The translations under genes and the position numbers were made by a program. The notes below the pieces were generated by a model. The model searched no databases. It was not told where the DNA came from and was given only the letters and a program-made list of their open reading frames with translations. From Acidimicrobiia bacterium (GTDB lineage: Bacteria > Actinomycetota > Acidimicrobiia > IMCC26256 > JAMXLJ01): 64,000 bases of DNA. The DNA is taken from NCBI GenBank assembly GCA_024281095.1, contig JAMXLJ010000047.1:9093-73092 (forward strand). The letters run 5' to 3'. Numbering within the stretch: the first letter of the stretch is position 1; each line of letters opens with the position of its first letter. Of the stretch, positions 50,344-64,000 are shown piece by piece.

Positions 50344-50540
50344 CCATCGGAGGCCATCACCCGGGATGCCCTGGGTGCCAGGCATCCCCGAGACGCGGAG
50401 CACGGCGGGGAACACCTACGCTTCGCAGGTCGGGTGGGTGAGCGGTCGGCCGACGCTCTGGCGTTGACACCGGGGGTTCCGTGCGACGCGATGGCGGTCT
50501 GTGTTTCTGCTGGCGGCGGGGCGCGGGCGAAGCCGTCCGC

Positions 50541-50912
50541 ATGCGACCGCTCGCCGCCGGGTTTGCGGTGTTCCTCGGCTGTTTGGGCTGCAGCGGCGGC
50601 ACGCCGCGCGAACCTAATCCTCTGGTAGGACACATCCTGGAGATCAATTTCACCAACGCAGCCAGCACCGGCGATACGTCCCGGTGCAGCAGCCCGCTCC
50701 CGGTGGGACAAAAGATCCTGATACGCGACAGCGCCGGGCACGTCGTCTACGCGGGAACCTCGCAGGGGGTAGGCACGACGGCGTTGGTGCCGATCGGCAA
50801 CGACCGGTACGACACGATCGAGATTCCCCGCGGCGCTCGAACTACGCGCGCGACCTACAGCCGCAACTACCTTGCAGCTCACAACTGGACCGTGACCCTC
50901 TCCGGTTGCTGA
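50541..50912 (+). CDS. small putative lipoprotein (123 aa)
   Basis: MRPLAAGFAVFLGCLGCSGG signal with lipobox; beta-rich mature part; lies in the GC trough. Confidence 0.45.
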   Translation: MRPLAAGFAVFLGCLGCSGGTPREPNPLVGHILEINFTNAASTGDTSRCSSPLPVGQKILIRDSAGHVVYAGTSQGVGTTALVPIGNDRYDTIEIPRGARTTRATYSRNYLAAHNWTVTLSGC

Positions 50913-51317
50913 ATTGGCGCACGCGCTGAATAGCCACCGCGTGTTCAGCCCCGTCCCAGCTCGCCACTACGACCAACGCGGCTGAACGGTCGAGCACGAC
51001 GACGCGCTCGCGACGCCGATTGAACGTCTCGTGCATCACGAAGTCGTCGTCGAGCCATGACAAGTCGAACGCGACGAACATCAGCGATTCGCGCCGTCGC
51101 GCAGACCACCGAAGGGGTCAAGCGACGAATCGGGGTTCGCCGCTACGCCGGCGTTCGTCGCCGCGACGATCGCGCCACGGCCAGCCCGGGGCGGCCCAAC
51201 GTTCAACGCATCACCGGGCCGGGATGCACCCAGGAAGAGCACCGTGTCCCCGCCGAGAGCGACCCGGCCCAGCGGCACCCCCTCGACGCGGACGACGACA
51301 ATGGCAGGGCCCTGCAT
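50842..51317 (-). other. two ATGA-overlapping small ORFs (78 and 79 aa) of unknown function; possibly frame-broken N-terminal CorA remnants
   Basis: GC3 is coding-like in both. GDTVLFLGASRPGD and MFVAFDLSWLDDDFVMHE loosely resemble the CorA segments G.i.iFvG..fvvTvRHGe and ilD.vvD.Y. The second ORF shares its frame with the CorA fragment at 50146-50343. Confidence 0.25.
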
Positions 51318-51716
51318 CCTCCAAATTCCACTATGCGTGGCCCCGTTCAGCCGCTGGGTGCTGCTTCATGACCGCAAAATGTCGGTCTGCATGCTCGCCG
51401 CCGGCACAGCGCCACTGTGCGTTCATTGATCGTTCTCATAGTCGTGGTCGTGGCTTCATCCAGCCACCGATTCACAACGCGGATCGTGGTTACCATGGCA
51501 CTCGGGCGAAAGGGCAGTTGATTCTCTGGGGCAGAGACCGCGGTTTTCGCCACCGCGGCAAACAAGGGAAGCAGGGAAGGAGTCTTCTTCGGCGTGACGA
51601 GGTCGTCGCGGCTGAATGCACGCGACGCCAGAAGCGCCTGGAAGATCCGTGGAACCGCGTGCGCGAGCGCGAGACGCTCGTGTCCTGGCGGTCGTGAACA
51701 TGGGCGGGAGACCACT

Positions 51717-53813
51717 GTGCAGCTGCAGCGCGCAGAAATCGGCGCGACTCATGACAGCGCATGCGTCTTGCACATTGCGCTGCTCGGCGGCTTTCGGGTG
51801 GAACGCGCGGGAACGTCCGTCTCCGACTTGTCCTGGCGACGGCGCAGTGCGAAGCGCCTGACGAAGCTGCTGGCGACGAACCCGAGTCACGCGCTCCACC
51901 GCGAACAGATCTTCGACATCCTCTGGCCCGACGCCGATGTCGATTCCGCTCGGAACAGCCTTGCAAAAGCGCTGCACGCGGCCCGTCGAGCGCTCGAGCC
52001 GGAACGGAGGCCGCGAGAGCACTCGTCATGTCTGCGGTCGCGGGACGACATGGTCCTGCTCGACGCGGACCAGGTGCTCATCGATGCTGATGCATTCCAA
52101 CGACTCGCGCAGGCCGCACTGCGGCTCGGGACCGTGACCGCGTACGAAGCGGCGCTCGCCGCGTACACGGGTGTGCTGCTCCCGGAGGACCTCTACGAGG
52201 ATTGGCCGTCCGAGCGTCGTGACTACCTCGCGGACCTGAACATTCGGCTGCTCGTCGGGATGGCCGAAGAGCTCGAGAAGAACGGGGGGCACCGGGTTGC
52301 CGTCGACCGACTCCGCACTGCGTTGCACAGCGATCCACTGCGTGAAGACGTACACCGCCGGCTCATGCGCGTCTACGACGCCATGGGTGACCGTGGGCTC
52401 GCACTGCGGCAGTTCGAGGTCTGCCGTGACGCCCTGCGGCGCGAGCTCGACGTCGCGCCCGAGCCCGAGACGACAGAGCTCTACGAACAGCTGATCGCGG
52501 GCCGGGCGGCGCCTCGTCGCGAGAGCACGGGCGGCGAGACAGAACGCGTGTGTGTGACCGGCGCCGCCCGAGACCGCGCCGGGGAACCGGCGGCCACGAC
52601 CGCGGCGCCGTTCGTCGGCCGCGATGCGGCCTTGCAGGAGTTGACCGACCACCTCGCTCGGGCGGCGGAAGGTAGCGGAAGCGTCGTCGTCGTCGGCGGC
52701 GAGGCAGGGGTTGGGAAGACCCGCCTCGTCGCCAGGTTCGCAGTCGCGGCGCAACAGCTCGGTGCGTGCGTCCTCGGCGACGCCGCGCACGCCAGCAGCT
52801 TCCCTTACGGCCCGTTTGCAACCGCGGTCGAGGGCTACGTTGCCGCGCGAACGGACGCCGAACGCAGCGAGCTCGCGCATCGTTACCCATCGCTCGGATG
52901 CCTCAGCCCCTCTGCGCAGAGCCCGGCACCCCTTTCTCTGGTGACACAGGACGGCTCGGATGCAATGCATGTGCGGCTCAGCACCGAGATCGCCCGCCTC
53001 TTGACGGACATCGCCGAGAGGCAGACAGTCGTGCTCGTGCTCGGCGACCTCGACGAAGCGCACCCCTCGAGCCTCGGGCTGCTCGAGTACTTGGCGAACC
53101 TGGCCCGTGGCCGCCGGTGGCTCGTCATCGCGACGCTGCGCGACGAGACCATGCTGCCGGGCAGCGCGGCCATGCGCACGCTCACGTCGATGTCATACGA
53201 GCGCCCGTGCAGCCGTGTGCGGCTGCCGCGCCTCGACCGCCACGAGTGCGACGAGCTGGTCCGGACGCTGCTTCGTGGTCGCGCCCTCGGCAGCGACTTC
53301 CTCGACCGGATGTACGCACTCACCGGCGGCAACCCGTTGTTCGTCGAGGAGCTCGCGCGGCGCGTCTCCGACCGCAGCGACACACCGACCACGACGCTCC
53401 ACTCCCGCGACCTCGGACGGGACAGCCTCGACACATCTCCAACTGTGCGAGCGGTCGTGCAGAAGGCGATCGCGCAGCTTGGAGCAAGCGCCTGTCGCGT
53501 CTTGGAGCTCGTCACCGTCGCAAAGTCCGGTGTCGCGCTCGAGAACCTTCGGCTGGCAGCTGCGGAGCTCGAGCCGCCGATCACGAACGCCGAGCTGTTC
53601 GACGCGCTCGACCGGTTGCTCGCCACCGGGATGTTGATCGAAGACCGCGGCGCATACACGACTCGGCACGCGATCGTCGGTGCCGTCCTCCTCCACGACC
53701 TTCCGCAACATCGCCGTGCCCAGTTGGCCGCGGCCTTGCGGGTGGTGGCGCGCCCGCGCGTGAGCACACGGCCGATGTCGTGGCCCCGCGCACACGAGGC
53801 CGAAGTTCGGTAG
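51717..53813 (+). CDS. AfsR/SARP family regulator: winged-helix + BTAD + P-loop (AAA_16/STAND) NTPase
   Basis: LLGGFRVERAG...RRSAKRLTKLLA...HREQIFDILWPD. BTAD segment (YEAALAAYTGVLLPEDLYEDW...DPLREDVHRRLMRVY). FVGRDAAL...VVVGGEAGVGKTRL. Start is 51717 or 51765 (both GTG). Confidence 0.85.
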   Translation: MQLQRAEIGATHDSACVLHIALLGGFRVERAGTSVSDLSWRRRSAKRLTKLLATNPSHALHREQIFDILWPDADVDSARNSLAKALHAARRALEPERRPREHSSCLRSRDDMVLLDADQVLIDADAFQRLAQAALRLGTVTAYEAALAAYTGVLLPEDLYEDWPSERRDYLADLNIRLLVGMAEELEKNGGHRVAVDRLRTALHSDPLREDVHRRLMRVYDAMGDRGLALRQFEVCRDALRRELDVAPEPETTELYEQLIAGRAAPRRESTGGETERVCVTGAARDRAGEPAATTAAPFVGRDAALQELTDHLARAAEGSGSVVVVGGEAGVGKTRLVARFAVAAQQLGACVLGDAAHASSFPYGPFATAVEGYVAARTDAERSELAHRYPSLGCLSPSAQSPAPLSLVTQDGSDAMHVRLSTEIARLLTDIAERQTVVLVLGDLDEAHPSSLGLLEYLANLARGRRWLVIATLRDETMLPGSAAMRTLTSMSYERPCSRVRLPRLDRHECDELVRTLLRGRALGSDFLDRMYALTGGNPLFVEELARRVSDRSDTPTTTLHSRDLGRDSLDTSPTVRAVVQKAIAQLGASACRVLELVTVAKSGVALENLRLAAAELEPPITNAELFDALDRLLATGMLIEDRGAYTTRHAIVGAVLLHDLPQHRRAQLAAALRVVARPRVSTRPMSWPRAHEAEVR

Positions 53814-53820
53814 GGCGACT

Positions 53821-56800
53821 GTGGAACAGGAGCGTTCGCTGCACGACGACGGCGCCTCGACGGCGACTCCGGCGGCGCGGCGCCGGCTGCTGTGGATGCT
53901 CCTCGTCGGCATCGCACCGCAATGGCTGTTGATCGGAACTTCGACGGGCGCGATGGTCGTCGGCGCCTTCCTTCTCTGCGTCGCCTTGGCGCTGGTCGAG
54001 CTGCATCTGTCGTGGTGCGCGCGGGGCCGCGGCGAGTATCGGATCCGCGCCCGCACCGTGCGGATCGCGCGCTCGTTCGCCCCGCCGCCTCTCTGGCTGC
54101 GCGTCGGCTCGGTCGGCGCGACAGTCGCGCTGCTCGTGCTCATCTGGTCACAGGTCCGCACGGGGTCGTTGCTCTTCCTGTCCTACATCGTGCTGTCTCT
54201 CCTCATCGGTGCGGTGTGCTGGACGACGCTCGTGTGGATGACGGACGCGTGGCGCGATCCGGCTGCGTTCGACGAGACCCGTCTGCCCCCGACGGATCTC
54301 GCGGCCTTTCACTCGTTCTCGCTGATCGTCCCGGCCCGTCATGAGGAGAACGTCCTTGCGGCGACGCTCAGCCGCCTGATTCAGACCGACCATCCGGATT
54401 TCGAGGTGATCGTCGTCGTGGGTCACGACGACGAGGCCACGGCGGCGGTGGCGCAACGCTTCGCGGCCGCGCATCGCGACCTGGTGAAGGTCGTCGTCGA
54501 CCACAGCTGGCCGAAGAACAAGCCCAAGGCGCTGAACACCGCCCTGCCGTACTGCCGGGGCGAGATCGTCGGTGTGTTCGATGCCGAGGACGACGTGCAT
54601 CCCGCGCTCGTCCGCCGGGTCGATCAGTGCCTGCAGCGCACCGGCGCCGACGTGGTGCAGGCCGGCGTCCAGCTGACGAACCTCCACTCCAGCTGGTTCT
54701 CACTCCGGAATGCCCTCGAGTACTACTTCTGGTTCCGCAGCCGGCTCCAATTCCACGCCCGCGTCGGCTTCATCCCCCTCGGCGGCAACACGGTGTTCAT
54801 GCGGACCGAAGTGCTGCGGCAAGTAGGCGGTTGGGACGAGGAGTGCCTGGCCGAGGACTGCGAGATCGGCGTGCGTCTGAGCTCCATGGGGGCGAAGACC
54901 GTCGTCTTCTACGAGCCGGAGCTCGTGACCCGCGAGGAGACGCCACCCACGCTGCGCGCCTTCGTGCGGCAGCGCACACGCTGGAACCAGGGATACCTCC
55001 AGACACTCTCGAGGGGCTATTGGCGCAACCTCCCCCAGACGCAACGTGCGCTCGGCGTCTACACGCTCGCGATGCCGTACTTGCTCGCCCTGGCGTGGCT
55101 CATGATCCCGACCGCGATCGGCACCGCGATTGCAGTGACCGCGCCCGTGCCGCTCACGATGCTCCTGTTCCTTCCGATCGTGCCCATGCTGGTGGTGCTC
55201 GCGGTCGAGACGGCCGGCCTCGGTGACCTGTGCCGTTCGTTCGGAGAGCGCGCATCCGTGCGCGACTACGCGCGTCTGGTAATCGGGTTGCCCGTGTACC
55301 AGGTCGTGCTCGCGTTCGCGGCGGTGCGCGCGGTCATCCGCGAGGCCGTGGGCGCACGAGGCTGGGAGAAGACCGCGCACTTCGGGCTCCACCGCGCGTA
55401 CGCCGACCGCGTACCCGAGCCGGCCTACCAGCTCGCCGCGGTGGGCACGTCGGACGGAACTGCCGCGACGGTTCCGCGGCCGGGGCTCGTTCTGTGGCAC
55501 ACGAACCCGAACGTCGAGGCCTTCGCCCTCGGCACGGCGCCGAGCGCACGTTCCGCCCCGCAAGTCATTCCGCTGCCCCACCACGACGGCCCCGCGCCGG
55601 TGCCCGATGTCGGTCGCACCACCCGGGACACACCCCTGTGGATCCGTCTCCGAACCGGGCGGGCGGGCGGCGCGTACACACTGCGGCCGGCGGATGCAAT
55701 CAGGATCGTTCCCCCCACCAGCGACACGCCCGGACGACGCGGCTTGCGCGCGCTTCTCGCGTGGCTGCGCACCGCGGTTCCCGCCATCGGGTTGCTCGCG
55801 GTCTTCACCTGCGTATCGCTGGTGCAAGTGGCGAACATCGCGCACTGGCCGGGAACGTTCTTCGACGAGGGTACCTACATCTCGAACGCCTGGGCGGTGC
55901 AGACCCATGGAGCGCTGTCCAACTACACCTATGGCTACGGCCATCCGCCGCTCGGCTGGCTCCTGATCTCGCTGTGGACCTGGACGACGCGACTTTTCGG
56001 GAACACCGTGTACTCGGTCGGTGTCGGGCGCCAGCTCATGGCCGCGCTGACGATCGTCAGCTGCTGGCTCGTGTACGTCCTCGCCCGCCGGCTCGGGATC
56101 CGCCGGCCGTTCGCCGCGGTCGCGGTGGCGCTGTTCGGCCTGTCGCCACTGTCCCTGTACTTCCACCGCCTGGTGCTCATCGACAATCCCGGGGTCACAT
56201 TCGCGCTCGGCGCCTTCGTGCTCGCGCTGTCGCCGAAGCGCCGTTTGTGGACGTTTGCTGCGAGCGGTGCCTGCTTCGCGGCCAGCGTGCTGGCGAAGGA
56301 GACGATGCTGCTGCTCCTTCCGGTCCTGTTTCTCATCGCGTTCAGCAACCTCGACCGGCGTAACCGTCGGTACTGCGTGACGTTCCTCGTCGCGTTCGTC
56401 ACACTCGTCGGGCTCGGGTACCCGCTCTACGCGTTGCTGAAGGGCGAGCTCTTCCCGGGGCCCGGCCACGTGAGCTTGATCGACGAGGCCGTCTACCAGC
56501 TGTTCTCGCGCCAGGCGACCGGAGCCCTCTTCAACGCGCACAGCGAGACGTACCAGATCGTGCGGCAGTGGTGGAACACCGATCCTTGGCTGCTGGGGGG
56601 CGCGGCGCTGTTCACGCCGATCGCGCTCGCCCGTCGATCCACACGGGCGGTCGGCGTGGCCTTCGTGTTCCAAGCGTTGATGGTGCTGCGCCCGGGTTAT
56701 CTGCCGTACATGTACGTGATCGCGTTGTTGCCCTTCGCGGCCCTCATCGTGGCCTGTGGGATGGACACGCTGTGGGCGTTCGCAGTGGACGGCCCGCGCC

Positions 56801-57387
56801 AGCGCGAGCAGAACGGTGGACGGTTGCGCTCGATCGTCGCGGCGGTCTCGCGACGCCTCGCTCCGGTGACGCGCACGGCCGCGGCCGGCGGCCTTCTCTC
56901 GGTCATGGCGGTCGCCGCGCTCGTCGTCAGCCCGGGCTGGGGACGGTACGACCGCGCGGCGATGACCGTCCGCTACGACAAGGCGGAGCGTGCCGCGGAA
57001 CAGTGGATCGTGAGCCACGTCGGCCACACGCAGCGGATCCTCGTGAGCGACAACTTCTGGATCGATCTGATCGAACGCGGCTTCGATGCGAAGGCTGTCA
57101 AGGGTGGTTTCTACTCTCGGACCGTGCTCTTCTACTGGTCGTTCGACTTCGACCCCGCCGTGGAGCGTCTGGTGCCAGATTGGAAGAACATCGACTACGT
57201 CGTATCGACACAAGGAATGCGCAGCGACATCGCGAACGCTCAGGTACCGAAGACCGCGCTGGCGGTCGAGCACTCACACGTCGTCGTGACGTTCGGGAAC
57301 GGAGACCAGCGAATCGAGATTCGCGCAATTGATGGCCACGTATCGGCACCGCTGGACCTTCCGCGCTCCATCGCGCAACACAGCTGA
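53821..57387 (+). CDS. 1188-aa fusion: membrane-embedded processive GT2 synthase (aa ~165-395) plus GT-C/PMT_2-like glycosyltransferase (aa ~645-985) plus C-terminal extracytoplasmic domain
   Basis: GT2 part: FSLIVPARHEE, DAED (54580-54591), QRTRW (54970-54984), flanked by TM helices. GT-C part: WPGTFFDEGTY first-loop acidic motif (55858-), more than 10 TM, LAKETMLLLLP. Confidence 0.85.
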   Translation: MEQERSLHDDGASTATPAARRRLLWMLLVGIAPQWLLIGTSTGAMVVGAFLLCVALALVELHLSWCARGRGEYRIRARTVRIARSFAPPPLWLRVGSVGATVALLVLIWSQVRTGSLLFLSYIVLSLLIGAVCWTTLVWMTDAWRDPAAFDETRLPPTDLAAFHSFSLIVPARHEENVLAATLSRLIQTDHPDFEVIVVVGHDDEATAAVAQRFAAAHRDLVKVVVDHSWPKNKPKALNTALPYCRGEIVGVFDAEDDVHPALVRRVDQCLQRTGADVVQAGVQLTNLHSSWFSLRNALEYYFWFRSRLQFHARVGFIPLGGNTVFMRTEVLRQVGGWDEECLAEDCEIGVRLSSMGAKTVVFYEPELVTREETPPTLRAFVRQRTRWNQGYLQTLSRGYWRNLPQTQRALGVYTLAMPYLLALAWLMIPTAIGTAIAVTAPVPLTMLLFLPIVPMLVVLAVETAGLGDLCRSFGERASVRDYARLVIGLPVYQVVLAFAAVRAVIREAVGARGWEKTAHFGLHRAYADRVPEPAYQLAAVGTSDGTAATVPRPGLVLWHTNPNVEAFALGTAPSARSAPQVIPLPHHDGPAPVPDVGRTTRDTPLWIRLRTGRAGGAYTLRPADAIRIVPPTSDTPGRRGLRALLAWLRTAVPAIGLLAVFTCVSLVQVANIAHWPGTFFDEGTYISNAWAVQTHGALSNYTYGYGHPPLGWLLISLWTWTTRLFGNTVYSVGVGRQLMAALTIVSCWLVYVLARRLGIRRPFAAVAVALFGLSPLSLYFHRLVLIDNPGVTFALGAFVLALSPKRRLWTFAASGACFAASVLAKETMLLLLPVLFLIAFSNLDRRNRRYCVTFLVAFVTLVGLGYPLYALLKGELFPGPGHVSLIDEAVYQLFSRQATGALFNAHSETYQIVRQWWNTDPWLLGGAALFTPIALARRSTRAVGVAFVFQALMVLRPGYLPYMYVIALLPFAALIVACGMDTLWAFAVDGPRQREQNGGRLRSIVAAVSRRLAPVTRTAAAGGLLSVMAVAALVVSPGWGRYDRAAMTVRYDKAERAAEQWIVSHVGHTQRILVSDNFWIDLIERGFDAKAVKGGFYSRTVLFYWSFDFDPAVERLVPDWKNIDYVVSTQGMRSDIANAQVPKTALAVEHSHVVVTFGNGDQRIEIRAIDGHVSAPLDLPRSIAQHS

Positions 57388-57400
57388 CCAAGGCCACGCA

Positions 57401-58501
57401 GTGCGCCACCGTGAATGGGCTGCGGCCGTCGCGCTGATCGCCGGCATCGCACTGCTCGCAGTCCTGCTTCCCTGGCACAAGTCGAAGTCGCCGCTCGAGA
57501 TCCGGGTGCGCGGCGCACATCTCGTCGACGGCTCGGGCCGCAACATCCGCCTGTTCGGCGTCAACCGGTCGGGTACGGAATACCAGTGCACGATCGGTGG
57601 CACGACGGGCGCCGGGATCTTCAGCGGGCCGGACGACGCCGCGTCGATCGCGTCGATGGTGTCGTGGCACATCAATGCGGTGCGGGTGCCGTTGAACGAG
57701 GACTGTTGGCTCGGCATCAACGGCGTGAACCCGGCCTATACCGGCACGGCGTACCAGCACGCCGTGGACGGGTACATCCGCAGACTCAACCACGCCGGCC
57801 TCATCGCCATCGTCGACCTCCACTGGAACGCGCCCGGCCGCCAGCTCTCGAGTGGACAGCGCGCAATGGCCGACGCGGATCACGCCCCTGCCTTCTGGAG
57901 TTCGGTCGCGACGCGGTTCAAGGCCAATCGGGCAGTGATGTTCGATCTCTACAACGAGCCCGTCAGCATCTCGTGGAGCTGCTGGCGCTCGGGGTGCGCG
58001 ACAGCCGGCGGCTGGCAAACCGTCGGCATGCAGACGCTGATCGACGTCGTTCGGCGCGCGGGCGCGCGGCAACCCGTCATCGCTTCCGGTCTCGGCCACG
58101 CGAACGATCTGTCGGGCTGGCTGGCCGCCGGCCTTCACGATCCGCTCCATCAGCTCGTCGCCGGCCTGCACATGTACGACACCGACGCTGACGGATACTG
58201 CAACACCGCCGCGTGCTGGGACGGCACCGTTGCGCCGGTCTCGAGGCAGGTTCCCGTCGTGACCGCTGAGATCGGCGAGCACGATCGCCGGTCCGACTTC
58301 GTCACGGCGTACATGCACTGGGCCGACCACGAGTGGCGTGCCGGCCGGTCGGTGTCGGTTCTCGCGTGGGCATGGGATGCGGCGCAGGGCGAGACCGCCC
58401 CGTCGCTGATCACCTCGTACGACGGCACGCCGACCGGCTACGGGCTCGGCTTCCGCACCTACCTCGCCGCGCTCTTCGAGCGAGGCGAGATCCACCGCTG
58501 A
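57401..58501 (+). CDS. glycoside hydrolase family 5 (endoglucanase-like), membrane-anchored or secreted
   Basis: GTG start after the synthase stop; TM/signal anchor; GVNRSGTEYQC; FDLYNEP (acid/base Glu); VVTAEIGE (nucleophile Glu). Confidence 0.85.
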   Translation: MRHREWAAAVALIAGIALLAVLLPWHKSKSPLEIRVRGAHLVDGSGRNIRLFGVNRSGTEYQCTIGGTTGAGIFSGPDDAASIASMVSWHINAVRVPLNEDCWLGINGVNPAYTGTAYQHAVDGYIRRLNHAGLIAIVDLHWNAPGRQLSSGQRAMADADHAPAFWSSVATRFKANRAVMFDLYNEPVSISWSCWRSGCATAGGWQTVGMQTLIDVVRRAGARQPVIASGLGHANDLSGWLAAGLHDPLHQLVAGLHMYDTDADGYCNTAACWDGTVAPVSRQVPVVTAEIGEHDRRSDFVTAYMHWADHEWRAGRSVSVLAWAWDAAQGETAPSLITSYDGTPTGYGLGFRTYLAALFERGEIHR

Positions 58502-58595: not shown

Positions 58596-58880
58596 CTACG
58601 CGGCGGGATCCTTGCGCTCGAGGCTCCGGCGCATGACCTTGCGGGCGAGCGACCGCACCTTGTTCTCGATGTTCCCGCCGCGCACGGCACGGTCGTCCAT
58701 CGCGTCCTTGTGCGCCTTCACGAGGAACGATGGTGACCGCACCGTCTCGGGCAGGCCGTGGCGTTCACGAATGCCGGCCAGACCGTCGTAGTGCTGCGTC
58801 ACCCAGTAGAGGTTGATCCGGCACGAGACGCAGTTCCACGCCTCGTCGGGGTTGTCGGTCCCGCACTTCGGGCACTTCAT
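58596..58880 (-). CDS. zinc-ribbon domain protein (94 aa)
   Basis: MKCPKCGTDNPDEAWNCVSCRINLYW; ATGA overlap with the upstream epimerase stop. Confidence 0.65.
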   Translation of the reverse strand: MKCPKCGTDNPDEAWNCVSCRINLYWVTQHYDGLAGIRERHGLPETVRSPSFLVKAHKDAMDDRAVRGGNIENKVRSLARKVMRRSLERKDPAA

Positions 58881-59878
58881 CGCTCCACTCCTGCGGTCTG
58901 GTACTCGAGCTGACCTGATGCGGCGCGGAGAACGCCCTCCCGGAGCGGGACGCGCGGCACATAGCCGAGGCGACTCCGCGCCTTGTCGATGCTGTGACGG
59001 TTGTCCGTGCCGAACAACTTCACGCCGAGCCGGGTCGCGGGTGGCTGGCGCCGCGATCTCATCGCGACCGCAGTGCGCTCCGCCGCGGCCGCAGCCGCGT
59101 AGAGCGGACGGTACGGCACGTGCACCCGCGGTCGTTTCGCGTCGATCGCGTCCGCGATGGCGTCGAACATCTCCTGCTGCGTGAGCGGCTCGTCGTTCGT
59201 GATGTTGAACGCCTCTCCCAGCGCGTCGTCGTGATCGAGGCCCAACAACAGACCCTGCACGACGTCGGTGACGTACGCGAACGGCAAGGCGTTGTCGCCG
59301 CGGCCGATGATGAGACCCTTGCCGGCTGCGATGCGTTCCGCCATCCGCTCGAAGTGCAGCTTGTCACCCGGGCCGAAGAAGGTTCCCGGCCTGATGATCA
59401 CCGCGGGCAGCCCGTCCTCGACGATCATCCGCTGCACGAGCTCGTCGCCCTCGGCCTTGGTGACGGGATACGGATCGGAGAACGGCCTGAGGGGATGCGT
59501 CTCGGAGCACGGCAACCCCTGGTCGATGCCGTAGACCGTCCACGAGCTCACGTGCACGACTCTTCGCACGCCGTGCTCGAGCGCGGCGCGACAGACGTTC
59601 TCGGTGCCCGTCACATTGACGGCTCGGTAATCGGAGAGCGGTCGCCAAACGCCCATCATGCCTGCGAGATGCAGGACGGCATCGACGCCACGCGTGGGTG
59701 CGATCAAGGTGTCCGGGAACCGGATGTCACCGCGGTACACCGCGCCCCCACGCTGCTCGAACCACGACACGTCTTCGCCGGGCAGCGCGAGCACACGCAC
59801 GACGTCGCCGCGCTCGAGAAGCTCGGAAACGAGGTGCCGCCCCAGAAGACCGCCGCCTCCTGTGATCAAGATCTCCAC
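58877..59878 (-). CDS. NAD-dependent epimerase/dehydratase, 3beta-HSD-like (paralogue 1)
   Basis: GTG start with AAGGAGAG upstream; ILITGGGGLLGRHLV; NVTGTENVCRAA; VHVSSWTVYG. Confidence 0.88.
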   Translation of the reverse strand: MEILITGGGGLLGRHLVSELLERGDVVRVLALPGEDVSWFEQRGGAVYRGDIRFPDTLIAPTRGVDAVLHLAGMMGVWRPLSDYRAVNVTGTENVCRAALEHGVRRVVHVSSWTVYGIDQGLPCSETHPLRPFSDPYPVTKAEGDELVQRMIVEDGLPAVIIRPGTFFGPGDKLHFERMAERIAAGKGLIIGRGDNALPFAYVTDVVQGLLLGLDHDDALGEAFNITNDEPLTQQEMFDAIADAIDAKRPRVHVPYRPLYAAAAAAERTAVAMRSRRQPPATRLGVKLFGTDNRHSIDKARSRLGYVPRVPLREGVLRAASGQLEYQTAGVER

Positions 59879-59889
59879 AAGTTCTCTCC

Positions 59890-60666
59890 TTACTGGACCG
59901 GCGACCAGTGCCGGTATCGGTGCGCGAGATCGGCGAGCGCCGGCGACGTCTGCTCGAGCCATGCGATGGCGGTGTGCCGGCGAGGGATGATCACTTCGCG
60001 CCGCGGCCGCCGGACGAGGTCACAGATCGCGTCGGCGACGACGCGGGGCTCGGGAAGACGACCCTGCACGTGACGGGTCATGTCCGTGCGGATGTTGCCC
60101 GGCGACACGAGCGAGACCGACACGCCGGTTCCTGCGAGCTGCCGACGCAGGCTGAGCGAGAATCCACGCAGCCCGTACTTGGTCGCCGAGTACACGGGCT
60201 CCATCGCCACCCGGCCCGACAGCGAGCCGACGCAGATGATGGTCCCGCGCCGCTGTCGAAGCATCCCCGGCAGCACCGCGCGGGTGAGCAACATGGCGCC
60301 CAGGAGGTTCACCTCCAACATGTCCGTCAGCTCGTCGGGCGCGGTCGCGACGACCGGGCGCATCCAGTTCGCACCGGCGTTGTTGACGAGAATGTCGACA
60401 GGGCCGAATGCGTCGTCGGCCCGGTCGACGAGTCGGTCGAGCTGGTCGGGATCCGTCACGTCGGTCGGGACCGACACGGCGTCGCAGCCGAGCGCCGTGA
60501 TCGCCAGTGCGTGGCGCCGGAGCTTGTCGGCCCGGCGGGCTGCGAGCACGACACGTGCCCCCTGCTGGGCGAGCGCACGCGCCGTCGCCGCGCCGATGCC
60601 GGAGCTCGCGCCGGTGACGATCGCAACCCGCCCTGCGAGCGTGTCCGTCCGATCGAGTGTGTGCAT
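59890..60666 (-). CDS. classical SDR family oxidoreductase
   Basis: VAIVTGASSGIGAATA, NNAG, YSATK. Confidence 0.88.
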   Translation of the reverse strand: MHTLDRTDTLAGRVAIVTGASSGIGAATARALAQQGARVVLAARRADKLRRHALAITALGCDAVSVPTDVTDPDQLDRLVDRADDAFGPVDILVNNAGANWMRPVVATAPDELTDMLEVNLLGAMLLTRAVLPGMLRQRRGTIICVGSLSGRVAMEPVYSATKYGLRGFSLSLRRQLAGTGVSVSLVSPGNIRTDMTRHVQGRLPEPRVVADAICDLVRRPRREVIIPRRHTAIAWLEQTSPALADLAHRYRHWSPVQ

Positions 60667-60671
60667 CGTCC

Positions 60672-61715
60672 TCACCGTTCCGATGTCCGCAACACAACCG
60701 CGGGATCGTGAACCGCCGGCGTGACGGGCGCCGGGTTCTCGCCCTGATACCAGGCGGCCGCGAGACGGATTCCCTCTCGCAGCGGCACGCGTGGTGCGTA
60801 GCCGAGCCGTGTCCTCGCTTTGGCGACCGAGAACCGCATGTCGCTCCCGGCGAACGCGACGCCGACACGCGTCAGCGGCGGGCGTTCCCACGTGTATCGG
60901 CCCGCGGGTACACGTTCGGCAAGCCAGGCCGCAGCGGAGAAGGCGCGGTATGGCAACGACACGAGACGCGGCTTCACGCCGAGCTCCTCCGCGATGGCTG
61001 TATAGAGCTCGCGTTGGGTGAGCGGCTCGTCGTTGGCGATGTTGAACGCCTCCCCGACCGCGTCCTCGTGGTCGACGCCGAGCAGGAGACCCTGCACGAC
61101 GTCGGTCACGTAGACGAGCGGTATCGCGTTCTCGCCCCGGCCGACGATGACGGCCTTGCCGGCTCGGACCCGGTCGGCCATGCGGCCGAAGTGCATGCGG
61201 TCGCCCGGGCCGAGGACCTGGTCGGGACGGATGATGGCCGCGGGAAGGCCGTCGTCCACGATCATTCGCTGGACCAGCTTGTCCGCTTCCGCCTTGGTGA
61301 TCGGATAGGGGTCGGGAAACGGCAAGAGCGCGAAGTGTTCCTCGACCGGCACGTCCCATTGCATGCCGTAGATGCTCGACGAGCTCATGTGCACGAACCG
61401 CCGAACCCCGGCAGCGAGTGCGGCCTTGCACACGTTCTCGGTACCGCGCACGTTCACGGCGACGTAGTCACGCATGGGTCGCCAGACGTCCATCATCGCG
61501 GCGAGATGCACGACCGCGTCGACGCCGGCCATGGGCGCGACCAGTGTCTCCGGCCGGCAGATGTCGCCGCGGTGGATCGACACGCCGCGCTGTTCGAGGC
61601 GCGACGTGTCCTCCGACGGCAACGCGAGCACGCGCACGCGGTCGCCACGGTCGAGCATCGCGTCGACGACGTGGTGGCCGACGAAGCCGTTGCCGCCGGT
61701 GACGAGTACCTCCAT
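60672..61715 (-). CDS. NAD-dependent epimerase/dehydratase, 3beta-HSD-like (paralogue 2)
   Basis: MEVLVTGGNGFVGHHVV; about 60-65% identical by eye to paralogue 1 along its length. Confidence 0.88.
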   Translation of the reverse strand: MEVLVTGGNGFVGHHVVDAMLDRGDRVRVLALPSEDTSRLEQRGVSIHRGDICRPETLVAPMAGVDAVVHLAAMMDVWRPMRDYVAVNVRGTENVCKAALAAGVRRFVHMSSSSIYGMQWDVPVEEHFALLPFPDPYPITKAEADKLVQRMIVDDGLPAAIIRPDQVLGPGDRMHFGRMADRVRAGKAVIVGRGENAIPLVYVTDVVQGLLLGVDHEDAVGEAFNIANDEPLTQRELYTAIAEELGVKPRLVSLPYRAFSAAAWLAERVPAGRYTWERPPLTRVGVAFAGSDMRFSVAKARTRLGYAPRVPLREGIRLAAAWYQGENPAPVTPAVHDPAVVLRTSER

Positions 61716-61717
61716 TG

Positions 61718-62728
61718 TCAGTTGCTCCTCACGGGAACCCCGGACTCGTGCGCGCAGCGGTACCACTCGATGCTCCGGCGCACGCCCTCGTTCATGTCGA
61801 TCTGGGGAGCGAAGCCGATCTCCTGCCGGGCCCGCTCGATACTGAAACGGTTCTCGCCCCCGAGCACCTGAAGGCCGTAACGCATCAACGGCGGCGGTTG
61901 CGCGCGCCGCGCCATCCGGCCCACGGTCTCGAGGCTCGCGCCGAGGGCCACGCCGAGGCGGTACGGAATGTGCCGGGTGGGTGCGGGGACGCCGAGCTCG
62001 GCCGCGATTGCGCCGAGGTACTCGCGCTGCGTCACGCGTTCGTCGTTGACGAGCAGGTACGCACGCCCCTGCGCGCCATCCGCTTCCGACGCCTGCAGGA
62101 TTCCCCGAGCCACGTCGCCGACGTAGACGAGCGGCAGGTGGTTGTCACCGGACCCCACGACCACCATCCGGCCGTCGCGGATCATCGTCGCGAACCGTCC
62201 GAAGCCGGCCACGTCGCGAGGGCCGTAGATGTAGCCCGGACGCACGACGGTGACGGGCGCACCGTCACGTTCGATCAGCCGTTGCAGCAGGCGTTCGCCC
62301 GCGACCTTCGAGCGACTGTACGGATTCGGTTCCGTCCGGAAGGGCGAGAGCTCGTCTGCGTCGCCCCGCACGTCGTTGCCGTGCACAGTGATCGAGCTCA
62401 CGTGGACGATGCGTCGAACGCCGGCATCGCGCGCGAAGCGCACGAGGGTCGCGAGCGCGTCGACGTTCGTACGCTGGTACTCCTGCTCGGGGCCCCATGG
62501 GCCGGTGCGCGCCGCGCAGTGGAGTACGGAATCGGCGCCGGTCATGGCGGCTGCGAGCACGCCGGGGTCGGCCACGTCTCCCGCGTGCGTCTCCACACCG
62601 GCGCGCGTCAGCGCAGTGGCGTCGTCGCCCGGCCCGATGAGGGCGCGCGGTTGCTCCCCCCGCTCGAGGAGGAGGTCGACGAGGTGGCTTCCCAGGAGCC
62701 CGGCTGCGCCCGTGACGACGACGGTCAT
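61718..62728 (-). CDS. NAD-dependent epimerase/dehydratase (paralogue 3)
   Basis: MTVVVTGAAGLLGSHLV; VHVSSITVHG; YSRSK. Confidence 0.88.
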   Translation of the reverse strand: MTVVVTGAAGLLGSHLVDLLLERGEQPRALIGPGDDATALTRAGVETHAGDVADPGVLAAAMTGADSVLHCAARTGPWGPEQEYQRTNVDALATLVRFARDAGVRRIVHVSSITVHGNDVRGDADELSPFRTEPNPYSRSKVAGERLLQRLIERDGAPVTVVRPGYIYGPRDVAGFGRFATMIRDGRMVVVGSGDNHLPLVYVGDVARGILQASEADGAQGRAYLLVNDERVTQREYLGAIAAELGVPAPTRHIPYRLGVALGASLETVGRMARRAQPPPLMRYGLQVLGGENRFSIERARQEIGFAPQIDMNEGVRRSIEWYRCAHESGVPVRSN

Positions 62729-63804
62729 GCGGCTCGCTCCTTCGACTCGTCACCCGACCACAGTTCGAGCGTCGACCGGAAGCTCAAGCCGATCGCCCTG
62801 ACGCTGACGAGCGCGGCCGCGGTCATCAACAGTCCCGTGAACGGATGGGAGAAGACGAACATCGCGCCGACTCCGGACCGGCTGACGCCGAACACCCCGG
62901 AGAAGATCAGGAGCCCCATCAACTCGTTGCTCCCGAGGTGGGCGGGTGGCGTGGGAAAGATGTACGCGAGGTTGTACAGCGTGTAGCCGTACAGGACGAC
63001 GGCGAGGCTGAGCGACGTGCCGACGGCCAGAAACGCGAGGTAGCAGAACAGCCCGTCGAGCGTCACCGCGACGCCGGTGTACGCCGCGCCGACGAGCAGC
63101 AGTCGCGGGTTGCGGAACAGCGTCAGCAGCGTGTCGACGAATTGCACTGCGAACGGCTCGACCCGGGTGGCCAAATGGCGCGGCAGCACGATGCGCACGA
63201 CGCGGGACACCAGACCCATGGCCCCCTCTTGCCGGCGGCCCGCCAGCGCGAGCACGAGACCGGCTGCCGCGAGCGCGAAAAGGGGAAAGAGGAGGAACAG
63301 CCACAGCGCACCGCTCAGGTGGAGCCCCGCGAACGGGACGATCAGCAGGAGCACGACAGCCGGAAGCAGGTCCAGCGACTTGTCCATGGTGATCGTCGCG
63401 AGCGAACGGCTGACCGGAATGCCGTTCGTACGGCGAAGGATCCCGCTCTTGGCCAGCTCGCCTCCCTGAACGGGCAACAGCCAATTCAGGAAGATCGCGA
63501 TGAAGTAGATCCCGACGGCACGCGTCGCGGGCAGCTCGTCGGGGCCGACGAACCGCCGCCACCGCAAGGCGCGGACCACGTACGCGCTCAGGAACACCAA
63601 CCCGCAGAGCAGCGCGAAGCCGACGTTCAGGTTCTCGACGCGGTTGAACACGGCTCGGACGCTGATCAGCTGGAGGAAGACGACGACGAACACTCCGCCG
63701 ACCACGAGGCCGGTCGCCATGCGCACGAACAGCTTCCGCACGTTCGTGGATTCACGAGCGGGGGGCGCAACGACTTCTTCGAGGTCGACGGTCTCGATGG
63801 TCAT
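62725..63804 (-). CDS. UPF0104 / lysyl-PG-synthase-TM-like flippase-like membrane protein
   Basis: 8 TM; YVVRALRWRRF, NWLLPVQGGELAKSGIL; ATGA overlaps at both ends. Confidence 0.85.
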   Translation of the reverse strand: MTIETVDLEEVVAPPARESTNVRKLFVRMATGLVVGGVFVVVFLQLISVRAVFNRVENLNVGFALLCGLVFLSAYVVRALRWRRFVGPDELPATRAVGIYFIAIFLNWLLPVQGGELAKSGILRRTNGIPVSRSLATITMDKSLDLLPAVVLLLIVPFAGLHLSGALWLFLLFPLFALAAAGLVLALAGRRQEGAMGLVSRVVRIVLPRHLATRVEPFAVQFVDTLLTLFRNPRLLLVGAAYTGVAVTLDGLFCYLAFLAVGTSLSLAVVLYGYTLYNLAYIFPTPPAHLGSNELMGLLIFSGVFGVSRSGVGAMFVFSHPFTGLLMTAAALVSVRAIGLSFRSTLELWSGDESKERAA

Positions 63805-64000
63805 GCCGGGAGGTAGCCGTGCTCGCGATACCAGGCGATGGTGTTCTTGATGCCGATGTCGAGGTCGGTCGACGCGACGAAGTCGAGGCTGCGCTCCGCC
63901 TTCGTGACGTCGTAGACGCGGCTGTGGGTGAGGAAGTCGAGCCGGCTGCTCGTCAGCGGCGCGCGGTGTCGCAGACGCCGGGGCAGCGCGTCGCCGAGCG
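63801..64000 (-). CDS. C-terminal end of a fourth NAD-dependent epimerase/dehydratase (5' part beyond the window)
   Basis: Own translation: ...LDFLTHSRVYDVTKAERSLDFVASTDLDIGIKNTIAWYREHGYLPA*, the typical C-terminus of this family. Confidence 0.75.
   Translation of the reverse strand, partial: LGDALPRRLRHRAPLTSSRLDFLTHSRVYDVTKAERSLDFVASTDLDIGIKNTIAWYREHGYLPA

Follow-up and report, generated by a model that had tools for sequence, protein, structure and literature searches.

A gene joining a CesA-like GT2 module to a GT-C glycosyltransferase module points to a widespread surface-glycan machine in soil Actinomycetota

The stretch of DNA analysed here (the window) comprises 64,000 nucleotides of contig JAMXLJ010000047.1 from an Acidimicrobiia bacterium and contains, on its plus strand, a gene whose single polypeptide of 1188 amino acids (aa) joins a glycosyltransferase family 2 (GT2) module, which resembles membrane-embedded polysaccharide synthases, to a second membrane module predicted to belong to the GT-C glycosyltransferase superfamily. 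We find that this GT2-GT-C architecture is real, conserved and common, and a full-text literature search retrieved no description of the pair or of the fusion, and with it no published characterisation. An earlier note on this DNA knew of no characterised example of such a fusion, in agreement with our search. The architecture is not rare, and is more often split into two genes than fused. As far as can be read from the sequence, one polypeptide carries two intact, predicted catalytic modules on opposite faces of the membrane, and the system points to a widespread surface-glycan machine in soil Actinomycetota. Synthase-dependent export, which draws on nucleotide-sugar donors, and GT-C glycosylation, which draws on lipid-linked donors, are usually treated as separate, and here they are joined; since the partnership is conserved, was fused once, occurs in at least 563 genomes and is linked to a glycanase, both chemistries appear to be combined in one machine.

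Authenticity of the fusion gene

The gene has one open frame at 53821-57387 on the plus strand (1188 aa plus the stop), with a GTG start of uncertain exact position; over residues 1-90 conservation is poor and the predicted local distance difference test score (pLDDT) is low. At a GC content of about 68%, as here, long shadow open reading frames (ORFs) arise frequently, and for this reason the plus frame was checked for its coding character, an antisense ORF of 857 aa (54700-57273, minus strand) being found to overlap the gene. The GC content at the three codon positions (0.67/0.49/0.87), the hundreds of full-length homologs and the mostly synonymous sequence variants identify the plus frame as coding, in line with the single uninterrupted ORF described in the earlier note. 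Thus, 53821-57387 is confirmed as the true coding frame of one genuine gene and not a high-GC shadow; it is the antisense ORF that is the shadow of the fusion gene. The positions given in that note for three motifs (DAED at 54580, QRTRW at 54970 and FFDEGTY at 55858) are all exact, and the layout that it proposed was likewise recovered, namely GT2, Ala/Pro-rich linker, GT-C body (around 13 helices in the C-terminal half) and a soluble tail of about 140 aa.

Most relatives of this protein are encoded by two genes, which invites the suspicion that two genes were joined into one long ORF by the assembly or by loss of a stop codon. We consider the chance of this to be negligible, and rejected an assembly artefact on the grounds of contig tiling, synonymous variants, more than 400 fused homologs and a single fused clade. 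The stretch 54900-56100, which spans the linker, was recovered from at least 20 runs of soil metagenomes, which belong to 12 studies, and contigs from four soil-metagenome runs, each of a different study, align on it with 0 indels and 0 joints, those of two runs (X1, X5) covering it from end to end. Among the 23 single-base differences in the metagenome contigs, 20 are synonymous and three non-synonymous in the frame of the ORF; within the linker the figures are seven and one, and no stop is created. The earlier note had proposed a check of coverage across the linker for a lost stop or an assembly join, and these independent contigs pass through it without indel or stop. No RNA or metatranscriptome run containing the linker sequence was found. 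The fused forms are, in addition, monophyletic.

The GT2 synthase module

The synthase half spans residues ~90-510, and its features within the gene are as follows (transmembrane, TM).

53821..57387, plus strand: GT2-GT-C fusion gene (ORF, Pfam, homologs, model)
54091..54246, plus strand: two N-terminal TM helices of the synthase module, aa 91-142 (hydropathy; AlphaFold2 helices 91-111 and 114-142)
54313..54990, plus strand: predicted cytoplasmic GT-A catalytic domain, CesA-like GT2, aa 165-390 (PF13641 at 1e-44, motifs, Foldseek)
54580-54591, plus strand: DAED, aa 254-257, invariant
54850-54858, plus strand: AED, putative catalytic-base motif equivalent to TED, aa 344-346, invariant
54970-54984, plus strand: QRTRW, aa 384-388, invariant
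54952..55350, plus strand: interface helix with QRTRW, and C-terminal TM/interface helices, aa 378-510 (AlphaFold2 helices 378-397, 406-439, 453-473 and 480-510)

The assignment of this half to the GT2 synthases, as made in the earlier note, is supported by family matches, motifs and fold alike. The Pfam scan returned PF13641 (Glyco_tranf_2_3, E=1e-44, aa 165-390) and PF13632 (Glyco_trans_2_3, 1e-24), and D203/D204, DAED, AED and QRTRW are invariant in an alignment of 117 fused homologs; in CesA-like GT2 enzymes the AED and QxxRW motifs act on the sugar acceptor. In sequence searches against the PDB the half matches PcManGT (6YV7, 1e-11) and also BcsA. The Foldseek comparison agrees, with PcManGT at 2e-11 and matches to PcManGT, BcsA (including BcsA-BcsG complexes) and the hyaluronan synthase HAS at 1e-11 to 1e-10, the match to GtrB being weaker (4e-7). 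The template modelling score on the target is 0.69 for PcManGT and ~0.6 over ~440 columns for HAS. As the alignments to HAS and BcsA extend over ~435-590 columns, as opposed to the ~225 residues of the GT-A domain, they probably include the membrane helices 378-510. The protein thus presents the motif set, the flanking helices and the overall fold of a membrane-embedded CesA-like GT2 synthase, and from sequence and model the N-terminal half holds as a CesA/HAS/PcManGT-like GT2, which would be processive.

Within this group, closer assignments were not obtained, the scores staying below the cut-off of every NCBIfam equivalog model. The half scores 38 bits against TIGR03030 (CelA), for which the cut-off is 699, and Pfam scans of the fusion protein and of the scanned neighbours gave no PilZ/c-di-GMP or BcsB match, so that it is not BcsA proper; nor is it the poly-N-acetylglucosamine (PNAG) synthase PgaC/IcaA, scoring 82 bits against a TIGR03937 cut-off of 422. 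The labels 'XagB' and 'PNAG synthase-like' that homologs carry at JGI are generic. PcManGT, a crenarchaeal, minimal cellulose-synthase-like mannosyltransferase, is the best match both in sequence and in fold, but is only 19% identical to the N-terminal half. This enzyme has reportedly been assigned to N-glycan precursor synthesis, and we know of no GT-C partner for it.

The GT-C module and the C-terminal domain

The second half of the protein comprises the following features.

55741..56967, plus strand: predicted GT-C TM module, aa 641-1049 (PMT_2 at 1.6e-9, PMT at 9e-5, Foldseek, invariant residues)
from 55858, plus strand: FFDEGTY, aa 680-686, in the first outer loop, with FDEGTY at 55861-55878
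55942-55953, plus strand: HPPL, with invariant HPP(L)
56296-56301, plus strand: KE, invariant
within the GT-C module, plus strand: long conserved loop, aa 874-908 (conservation)
56968..57384, plus strand: conserved C-terminal α/β domain with no assigned family, aa 1050-1188 (conserved in fused and split GT-C proteins)

When scanned alone, the C-terminal half matches PF13231 (PMT_2) with 38.6 bits, above the cut-off of 26.1, although this is a broad Pfam family and the match does not demonstrate ArnT function. Its score against PF02366 (PMT) falls just below the cut-off of 22.7, with 22.6 bits for the half and 21.2 for the whole protein. In a set of 58 fused and split family members, 46 match PMT_2. 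The AlphaFold2 model of the half (pLDDT 87.2, predicted template modelling score (pTM) 0.87) consists of ~13 helices followed by an α/β tail of ~140 aa, and its top 38 PDB matches in Foldseek are all GT-C enzymes (probability 1.00, best template modelling score 0.5-0.57). ArnT is the best of them (1.8e-8, 0.53/0.57), followed by STT3, AglB, PglB, ALG9, ALG12, Pmt4, DPY19, AftD, Emb, AftB and PimE; in the comparison with yeast Pmt1/2 only ~265 columns were aligned. A PDB sequence search found no GT-C chain, either with the single sequence or with the 58-member profile, and the placement therefore rests only on Pfam and on fold comparison. Taken together, the PMT_2 match and the 38 fold matches uphold the PMT_2-like GT-C identity anticipated in the earlier note, and from sequence and model the half holds as a PMT_2/ArnT-like GT-C module.

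This is also reflected in the conserved residues. FDE-TY, HPP(L) and KE are invariant in the 117 fused homologs, and extending the set by split GT-C proteins of 33-45% identity leaves D, E, G, T, Y, HPP and KE unchanged; in particular, the acidic residues D682/E683 (D82/E83 of A2) of the first extracytoplasmic loop, which together with the fold place the module in the GT-C superfamily, are invariant in both the fused and the fused-plus-split sets. The DE pair in the first outer loop and the HPP motif correspond to the signatures of the PMT family. The likeness to ArnT (5F15/5EZM, GT83) and to PMT (GT39) consists of these motifs, the Pfam PMT_2/PMT matches and, for ArnT, the best fold match. 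Nevertheless, the module differs from both: no ArnT sequence homology was detected, no PDB sequence was matched, the Pfam scans returned no MIR domain (a feature of eukaryotic PMTs) and the neighbours are a SARP regulator and a GH5 hydrolase, with no arn-operon genes. The C-terminal domain is also unique; its residues 1011-1188 gave no credible Pfam match, and fused and split GT-C proteins alike retain it.

The linker, membrane topology and packing of the modules

The two modules are connected by a variable segment.

55351..55740, plus strand: Ala/Pro/Arg/Thr-rich, predicted disordered linker, aa 511-640 (pLDDT, hydropathy, composition)

In the AlphaFold2 model the pLDDT is below 50 at 523-592 and 615-640, and the 118 residues from 523 to 640 include 17 Ala, 17 Pro, 13 Arg and 12 Thr. 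Homologs differ in the distance between the motifs on either side of the linker, which ranges from 99 to 238 residues. Amidst this variation a short conserved element, PLWxRL...P, is found at 55627-55695 of the window (aa 603-625), in which a helix is predicted at ~aa 603-613 (pLDDT ~81); it is kept within the fused clade and may be a docking or gating helix.

The loop defined by hydropathy at 507-651, which encloses the linker, carries 18 lysine or arginine residues, whereas that bearing the DE motif (671-732) carries one. Further, some homologs have additional C-terminal domains behind the tail: the metagenomic homolog P0056 (1680 aa) combines GT2, GT-C, fn3 (aa 1257-1340) and GH5 (aa 1371-1640) in one chain, and P0070 (1218 aa) ends in LysM (aa 1170-1216). 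These extensions indicate that the C-terminus lies outside and that a glycanase, and perhaps peptidoglycan, is tied to the machine. Considering the charge of the two loops, the fn3, GH5 and LysM extensions and the signal of the neighbouring GH5 protein, the linker is probably cytoplasmic, as the GT-A domain would be, and the DE loop of the GT-C module and the tail would be extracytoplasmic.

The model of the whole protein, built with 117 homologs, has a pLDDT of 76.7 and a pTM of 0.76, the stretches 1-48, 68-89, 523-592 and 615-640 being disordered. That such a pTM is reached despite 184 disordered residues gives a weak hint that the two membrane modules pack together. Such packing would also suit a GT-C module that is not catalytic and instead aids the synthase as a scaffold, as an extension of its channel or as a means of localising it, as would the fact that no lipid-donor synthase is found in the window. 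We regard this as very doubtful, however, since DE, HPP and KE do not vary between fused and split lineages whose overall identity is 33-65%, a conservation that is typical of active GT-C enzymes.

Distribution and evolution of the GT2/GT-C pair

A survey for the same fusion and its phyletic spread, proposed in the earlier note, proved productive. A protein search returned at least 403 full-length relatives, ~55% identical and essentially all with GT2 plus PMT_2/PMT, from Thermoleophilia, Solirubrobacterales, Acidimicrobiales, Streptosporangiaceae metagenome-assembled genomes (MAGs) and soil metagenomes; at least 400 metagenomic proteins share the fused architecture. Relatives are encoded in at least 563 species genomes, most of them of Actinomycetota, with genera such as Microbacterium, Frigoribacterium, Plantibacter, Nocardioides, Lentzea, Pseudonocardia, Millisia, Mycolicibacterium and Mycobacterium spp., together with a few Chloroflexota and Dormibacterota MAGs. 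We have compared the best 80 loci among these genomes, with flanks of ±6 kb. Ten are fused, and in 69 the two parts are split, the GT2 gene being followed directly, and often with overlap, by the GT-C gene.

When the GT2 domains were placed in a maximum-likelihood tree, the 11 fused sequences grouped in a single clade (support 99/92), which corresponds to one change, and its sister group consists of split pairs from two non-actinobacterial MAGs. Judged by comparison of sequences, the GT2 and GT-C pair is shown to be an ancient, conserved two-gene unit in Actinomycetota, in what amounts to a Rosetta-stone case, and the fused forms are compatible with one fusion at a later time. The functional coupling that the earlier note had proposed is strengthened by the adjacency of the split pair in 69 of the 80 loci and by the conserved GH5/GH8 neighbours described below.

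The closest relative of the fusion, 81% identical in the GT2 domain and with the same SARP-fusion-GH5 order, is found at locus L001 (CAZJSY010000051.1), whose contig was assigned to 'uncultured Burkholderiales' by binning. Judging from the genes that it contains and from its placement among Actinomycetota in the tree, the contig may have been binned wrongly or the locus transferred horizontally. In seven split loci (L009, L010, L011, L015, L016, L028, L042) the GT2 and GT-C frames are shared, with a single in-frame stop between them. A readthrough signal was considered here and dismissed, as 7 of 69 is less than the one-third expected by chance for a shared frame.

Genes adjoining the pair

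Two neighbouring genes on the same strand accompany the fusion gene.

51594..53813, plus strand: SARP-type regulator of 739 aa with winged-helix, BTAD and AAA/STAND ATPase domains (Pfam BTAD 1.5e-20, AAA_16 8e-23, Trans_reg_C)
57401..58501, plus strand: glycoside hydrolase family 5 (GH5) protein of the cellulase family with an N-terminal hydrophobic signal or anchor (PF00150 8e-23; start and signal read from sequence)

The regulator, which also gives a weak NCBIfam AfsR match, ends 8 nt upstream of the fusion gene; its family adjoins the fusion gene in eight of the ten fused loci and is directly upstream on the same strand in six. The GH5 gene has its likely GTG start at 57401, 14 nt past the stop of the fusion gene, and the best PDB sequence matches of its product are endo-β-1,4-glucanases of the Cel5A type. 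All ten fused loci have GH5 within their flanks, immediately downstream in at least seven.

The split loci follow the order GT2, GT-C, [DUF4397], GH8, [small GT2], brackets denoting genes that are not always present, and the family of the hydrolase is exchanged between clades. GH8 was found in 42 of the 80 loci and GH8 or GH5 in at least 53. The small GT2 is nearest to AglJ/PpgS/ArnC, that is, to polyprenyl- or dolichyl-phosphate sugar synthases, though below their cut-offs, and occurs in 17/80 loci; GtrA occurs in 5/80, and one or both in 19/80. A search of the window for the partners found in related loci gave no GtrB-like synthase, GtrA, GH8, DUF4397, radical-SAM or second GT2 homolog.

In Microbacterium (L031:9312-11839 and similar Microbacteriaceae loci) the GT-C gene is followed by DUF4397, which was found in 19 loci, and then by GH8 fused to a sortase domain. 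The GH8-sortase fusion is a hint that some component of the system becomes bound covalently to the wall.

Proposed mechanism and alternative explanations

The working model to which we give roughly even credence is that of a synthase-dependent β-glycan: on the far side of the membrane the GT-C module would modify or attach the growing chain, and GH5 would trim it. Drawing on a nucleotide sugar, the GT2 module would build up a β-linked glycan and thread it across the membrane; in view of the GH5/GH8 partners this polymer is most probably similar to a β-1,4-glucan. The tethered GT-C would then decorate the emerging chain, or link it to an envelope acceptor, using a polyprenyl-phosphate sugar, and GH5 would trim or release the product, with the upstream SARP-type regulator probably controlling the operon. 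The polymer, donor sugar, lipid donor and acceptor named here are the presumed ones. The specificities shared by GH5 and GH8 centre on β-1,4-glucan-type substrates, and the fact that these unrelated families replace each other favours a cellulose-like or related backbone. Also in favour of the model, a putative separate donor supply for the GT-C is encoded in some loci, by the small PpgS/AglJ/ArnC-like GT2 (17 loci) and GtrA (5 loci).

Several observations weigh against this model. The synthase module is minimal, with ~4-5 TM helices, and its best structural match, PcManGT, is said to be a non-processive mannosyltransferase of lipid-linked glycans, which leaves processivity and a complete channel unproven; QxxRW is known, moreover, also from non-processive GT2/GT21 enzymes. 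No GH8 or GH5 was seen in 27 of the 80 loci, some of which lie on cut-off contigs, and the ORF filter was crude. Finally, there is no GtrB-like synthase or GtrA in the window or within ±6 kb of the ten fused loci, and the lipid donor would in these cases come from elsewhere.

By analogy, the system would work most like the BcsA-BcsG-BcsZ system of E. coli and Salmonella. Both couple a CesA-type GT2 to a membrane enzyme that modifies the chain at the outer face, with a β-1,4-glucanase gene alongside (BcsZ being GH8), and BcsA and BcsA-BcsG are among the top fold matches of the N-terminal half. However, the partner is a GT-C here and a phosphoethanolamine transferase of the alkaline-phosphatase type (BcsG) there, the synthase of the fusion system is much smaller, the coupling is covalent, and PilZ and BcsB matches were absent from the Pfam results for the scanned proteins. 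A resemblance may also be drawn to CslA-GlxA-CslZ of Streptomyces, in which a CesA-like GT2, an extracytoplasmic partner and an adjacent endoglucanase produce a wall-associated β-glycan. The partner class differs again, GlxA being a copper radical oxidase; the glycanase is GH6, as opposed to GH5 or GH8 in the GT2/GT-C loci, and we know of no fusion in that system.

One alternative is a lipid-carrier route. In this explanation, which we find possible though rather unlikely, the GT2 elongates and exports a primer linked to polyprenyl phosphate and the GT-C moves the whole glycan, in the manner of an oligosaccharyltransferase or ligase, to peptidoglycan, protein or lipoglycan. PcManGT as best structural match of the N-terminal half, the oligosaccharyltransferases STT3, AglB and PglB among the GT-C fold matches (1e-7), the lack of a separate polyprenyl-phosphate-sugar synthase near the fused loci, and the LysM C-terminus of one homolog, which suggests action at the wall, are all in keeping with it. 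Nevertheless, in sequence the GT-C resembles PMT_2/PMT, whose members transfer single sugars from polyprenyl monophosphate donors, the PpgS/AglJ-like GT2 and GtrA of the split loci fit a monosaccharide lipid donor, and no initiating phosphoglycosyl transferase was seen in the 80 loci.

A self-contained system similar to Gtr would differ in that the GT2 makes, and perhaps flips, a polyprenyl-phosphate sugar or glycolipid, with which the fused GT-C glycosylates an unrelated acceptor. To our knowledge, all characterised GT2/GT-C partnerships operate in this way (ArnC/ArnT, GtrB/GtrC, PpgS/Rv3779, CsbB/YfhO), fusions of consecutive pathway enzymes are common, and the synthase has few TM helices. 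The GtrA/GtrB/GtrC, ArnC/ArnT, CsbB/GtcA/YfhO and PpgS/Rv3779 systems indeed share with ours a GT2 at the cytoplasmic face and a GT-C at the outer face, and some split loci also contain the PpgS/AglJ-like small GT2 and GtrA. Their GT2, however, is a non-processive polyprenyl-phosphate sugar synthase lacking QxxRW, whereas ours is CesA-like, with AED and QRTRW invariant and a fold much nearer to BcsA, HAS and PcManGT (1e-11) than to GtrB (4e-7). Since, in addition, endoglycanase genes are conserved beside the pair, even fused to it, and a separate PpgS-like GT2 and GtrA are present in some loci, we judge this explanation improbable. We know of no other fusion of a CesA-like GT2 with a GT-C.

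Returning to the synthase-dependent model, a bolder version may be put forward tentatively, with considerably more doubt than conviction: the GT2 and the GT-C would be obligate parts of a single membrane complex, linked covalently in the fused clade, and would represent a fourth style of bacterial glycan assembly, in which a polymerase-translocase hands its chain to a lipid-donor GT-C. The latter would branch the chain, or anchor it to the envelope, as it exits, and a dedicated endoglucanase would set its length. If true, this would amount to a phylum-wide and previously unrecognised pathway for an actinobacterial wall or matrix β-glycan.

The product of the pair could be an unrecognised part of actinobacterial envelopes or biofilm matrices. 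The family is found in cultivable and tractable Microbacterium, Nocardioides and environmental Mycolicibacterium, and product and mechanism are therefore directly testable, while the fused protein, with both modules in one chain, lends itself well to cryo-electron microscopy of a synthase-modifier complex.

Other features of the flanking DNA

The segment of about 1.2 kb that precedes the SARP regulator (50400-51600 of the window) has a lower GC content (0.63-0.67) and contains no ORF with a Pfam match. In the flanks of fused loci (L004, L005, L006, L007, L001, L003) three kinds of gene recur beside the SARP-fusion-GH5 unit, in varying orientation: those for a second GT2 (PgaC/MftF-like, ~450-570 aa), for a radical-SAM/SPASM protein and for an epimerase. 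Of these, only epimerases are also present in the window.

Past GH5, the window continues with a convergent run of genes, part of it made up of overlapping frames.

58877-63804, minus strand: the whole run
58877-59962, 60672-61766 and 61718-62728, minus strand: NAD-dependent epimerase/dehydratase genes
59890-61431, minus strand: overlapping frame with an SDR-domain match
62725-63804, minus strand: LPG_synthase_TM membrane protein

This epimerase run may belong with the locus, either supplying nucleotide sugars or acting as a glycolipid cluster. A fourth epimerase fragment, at the edge of the window (63807-63974), is 73% identical to the epimerase that adjoins the fusion gene of L001.

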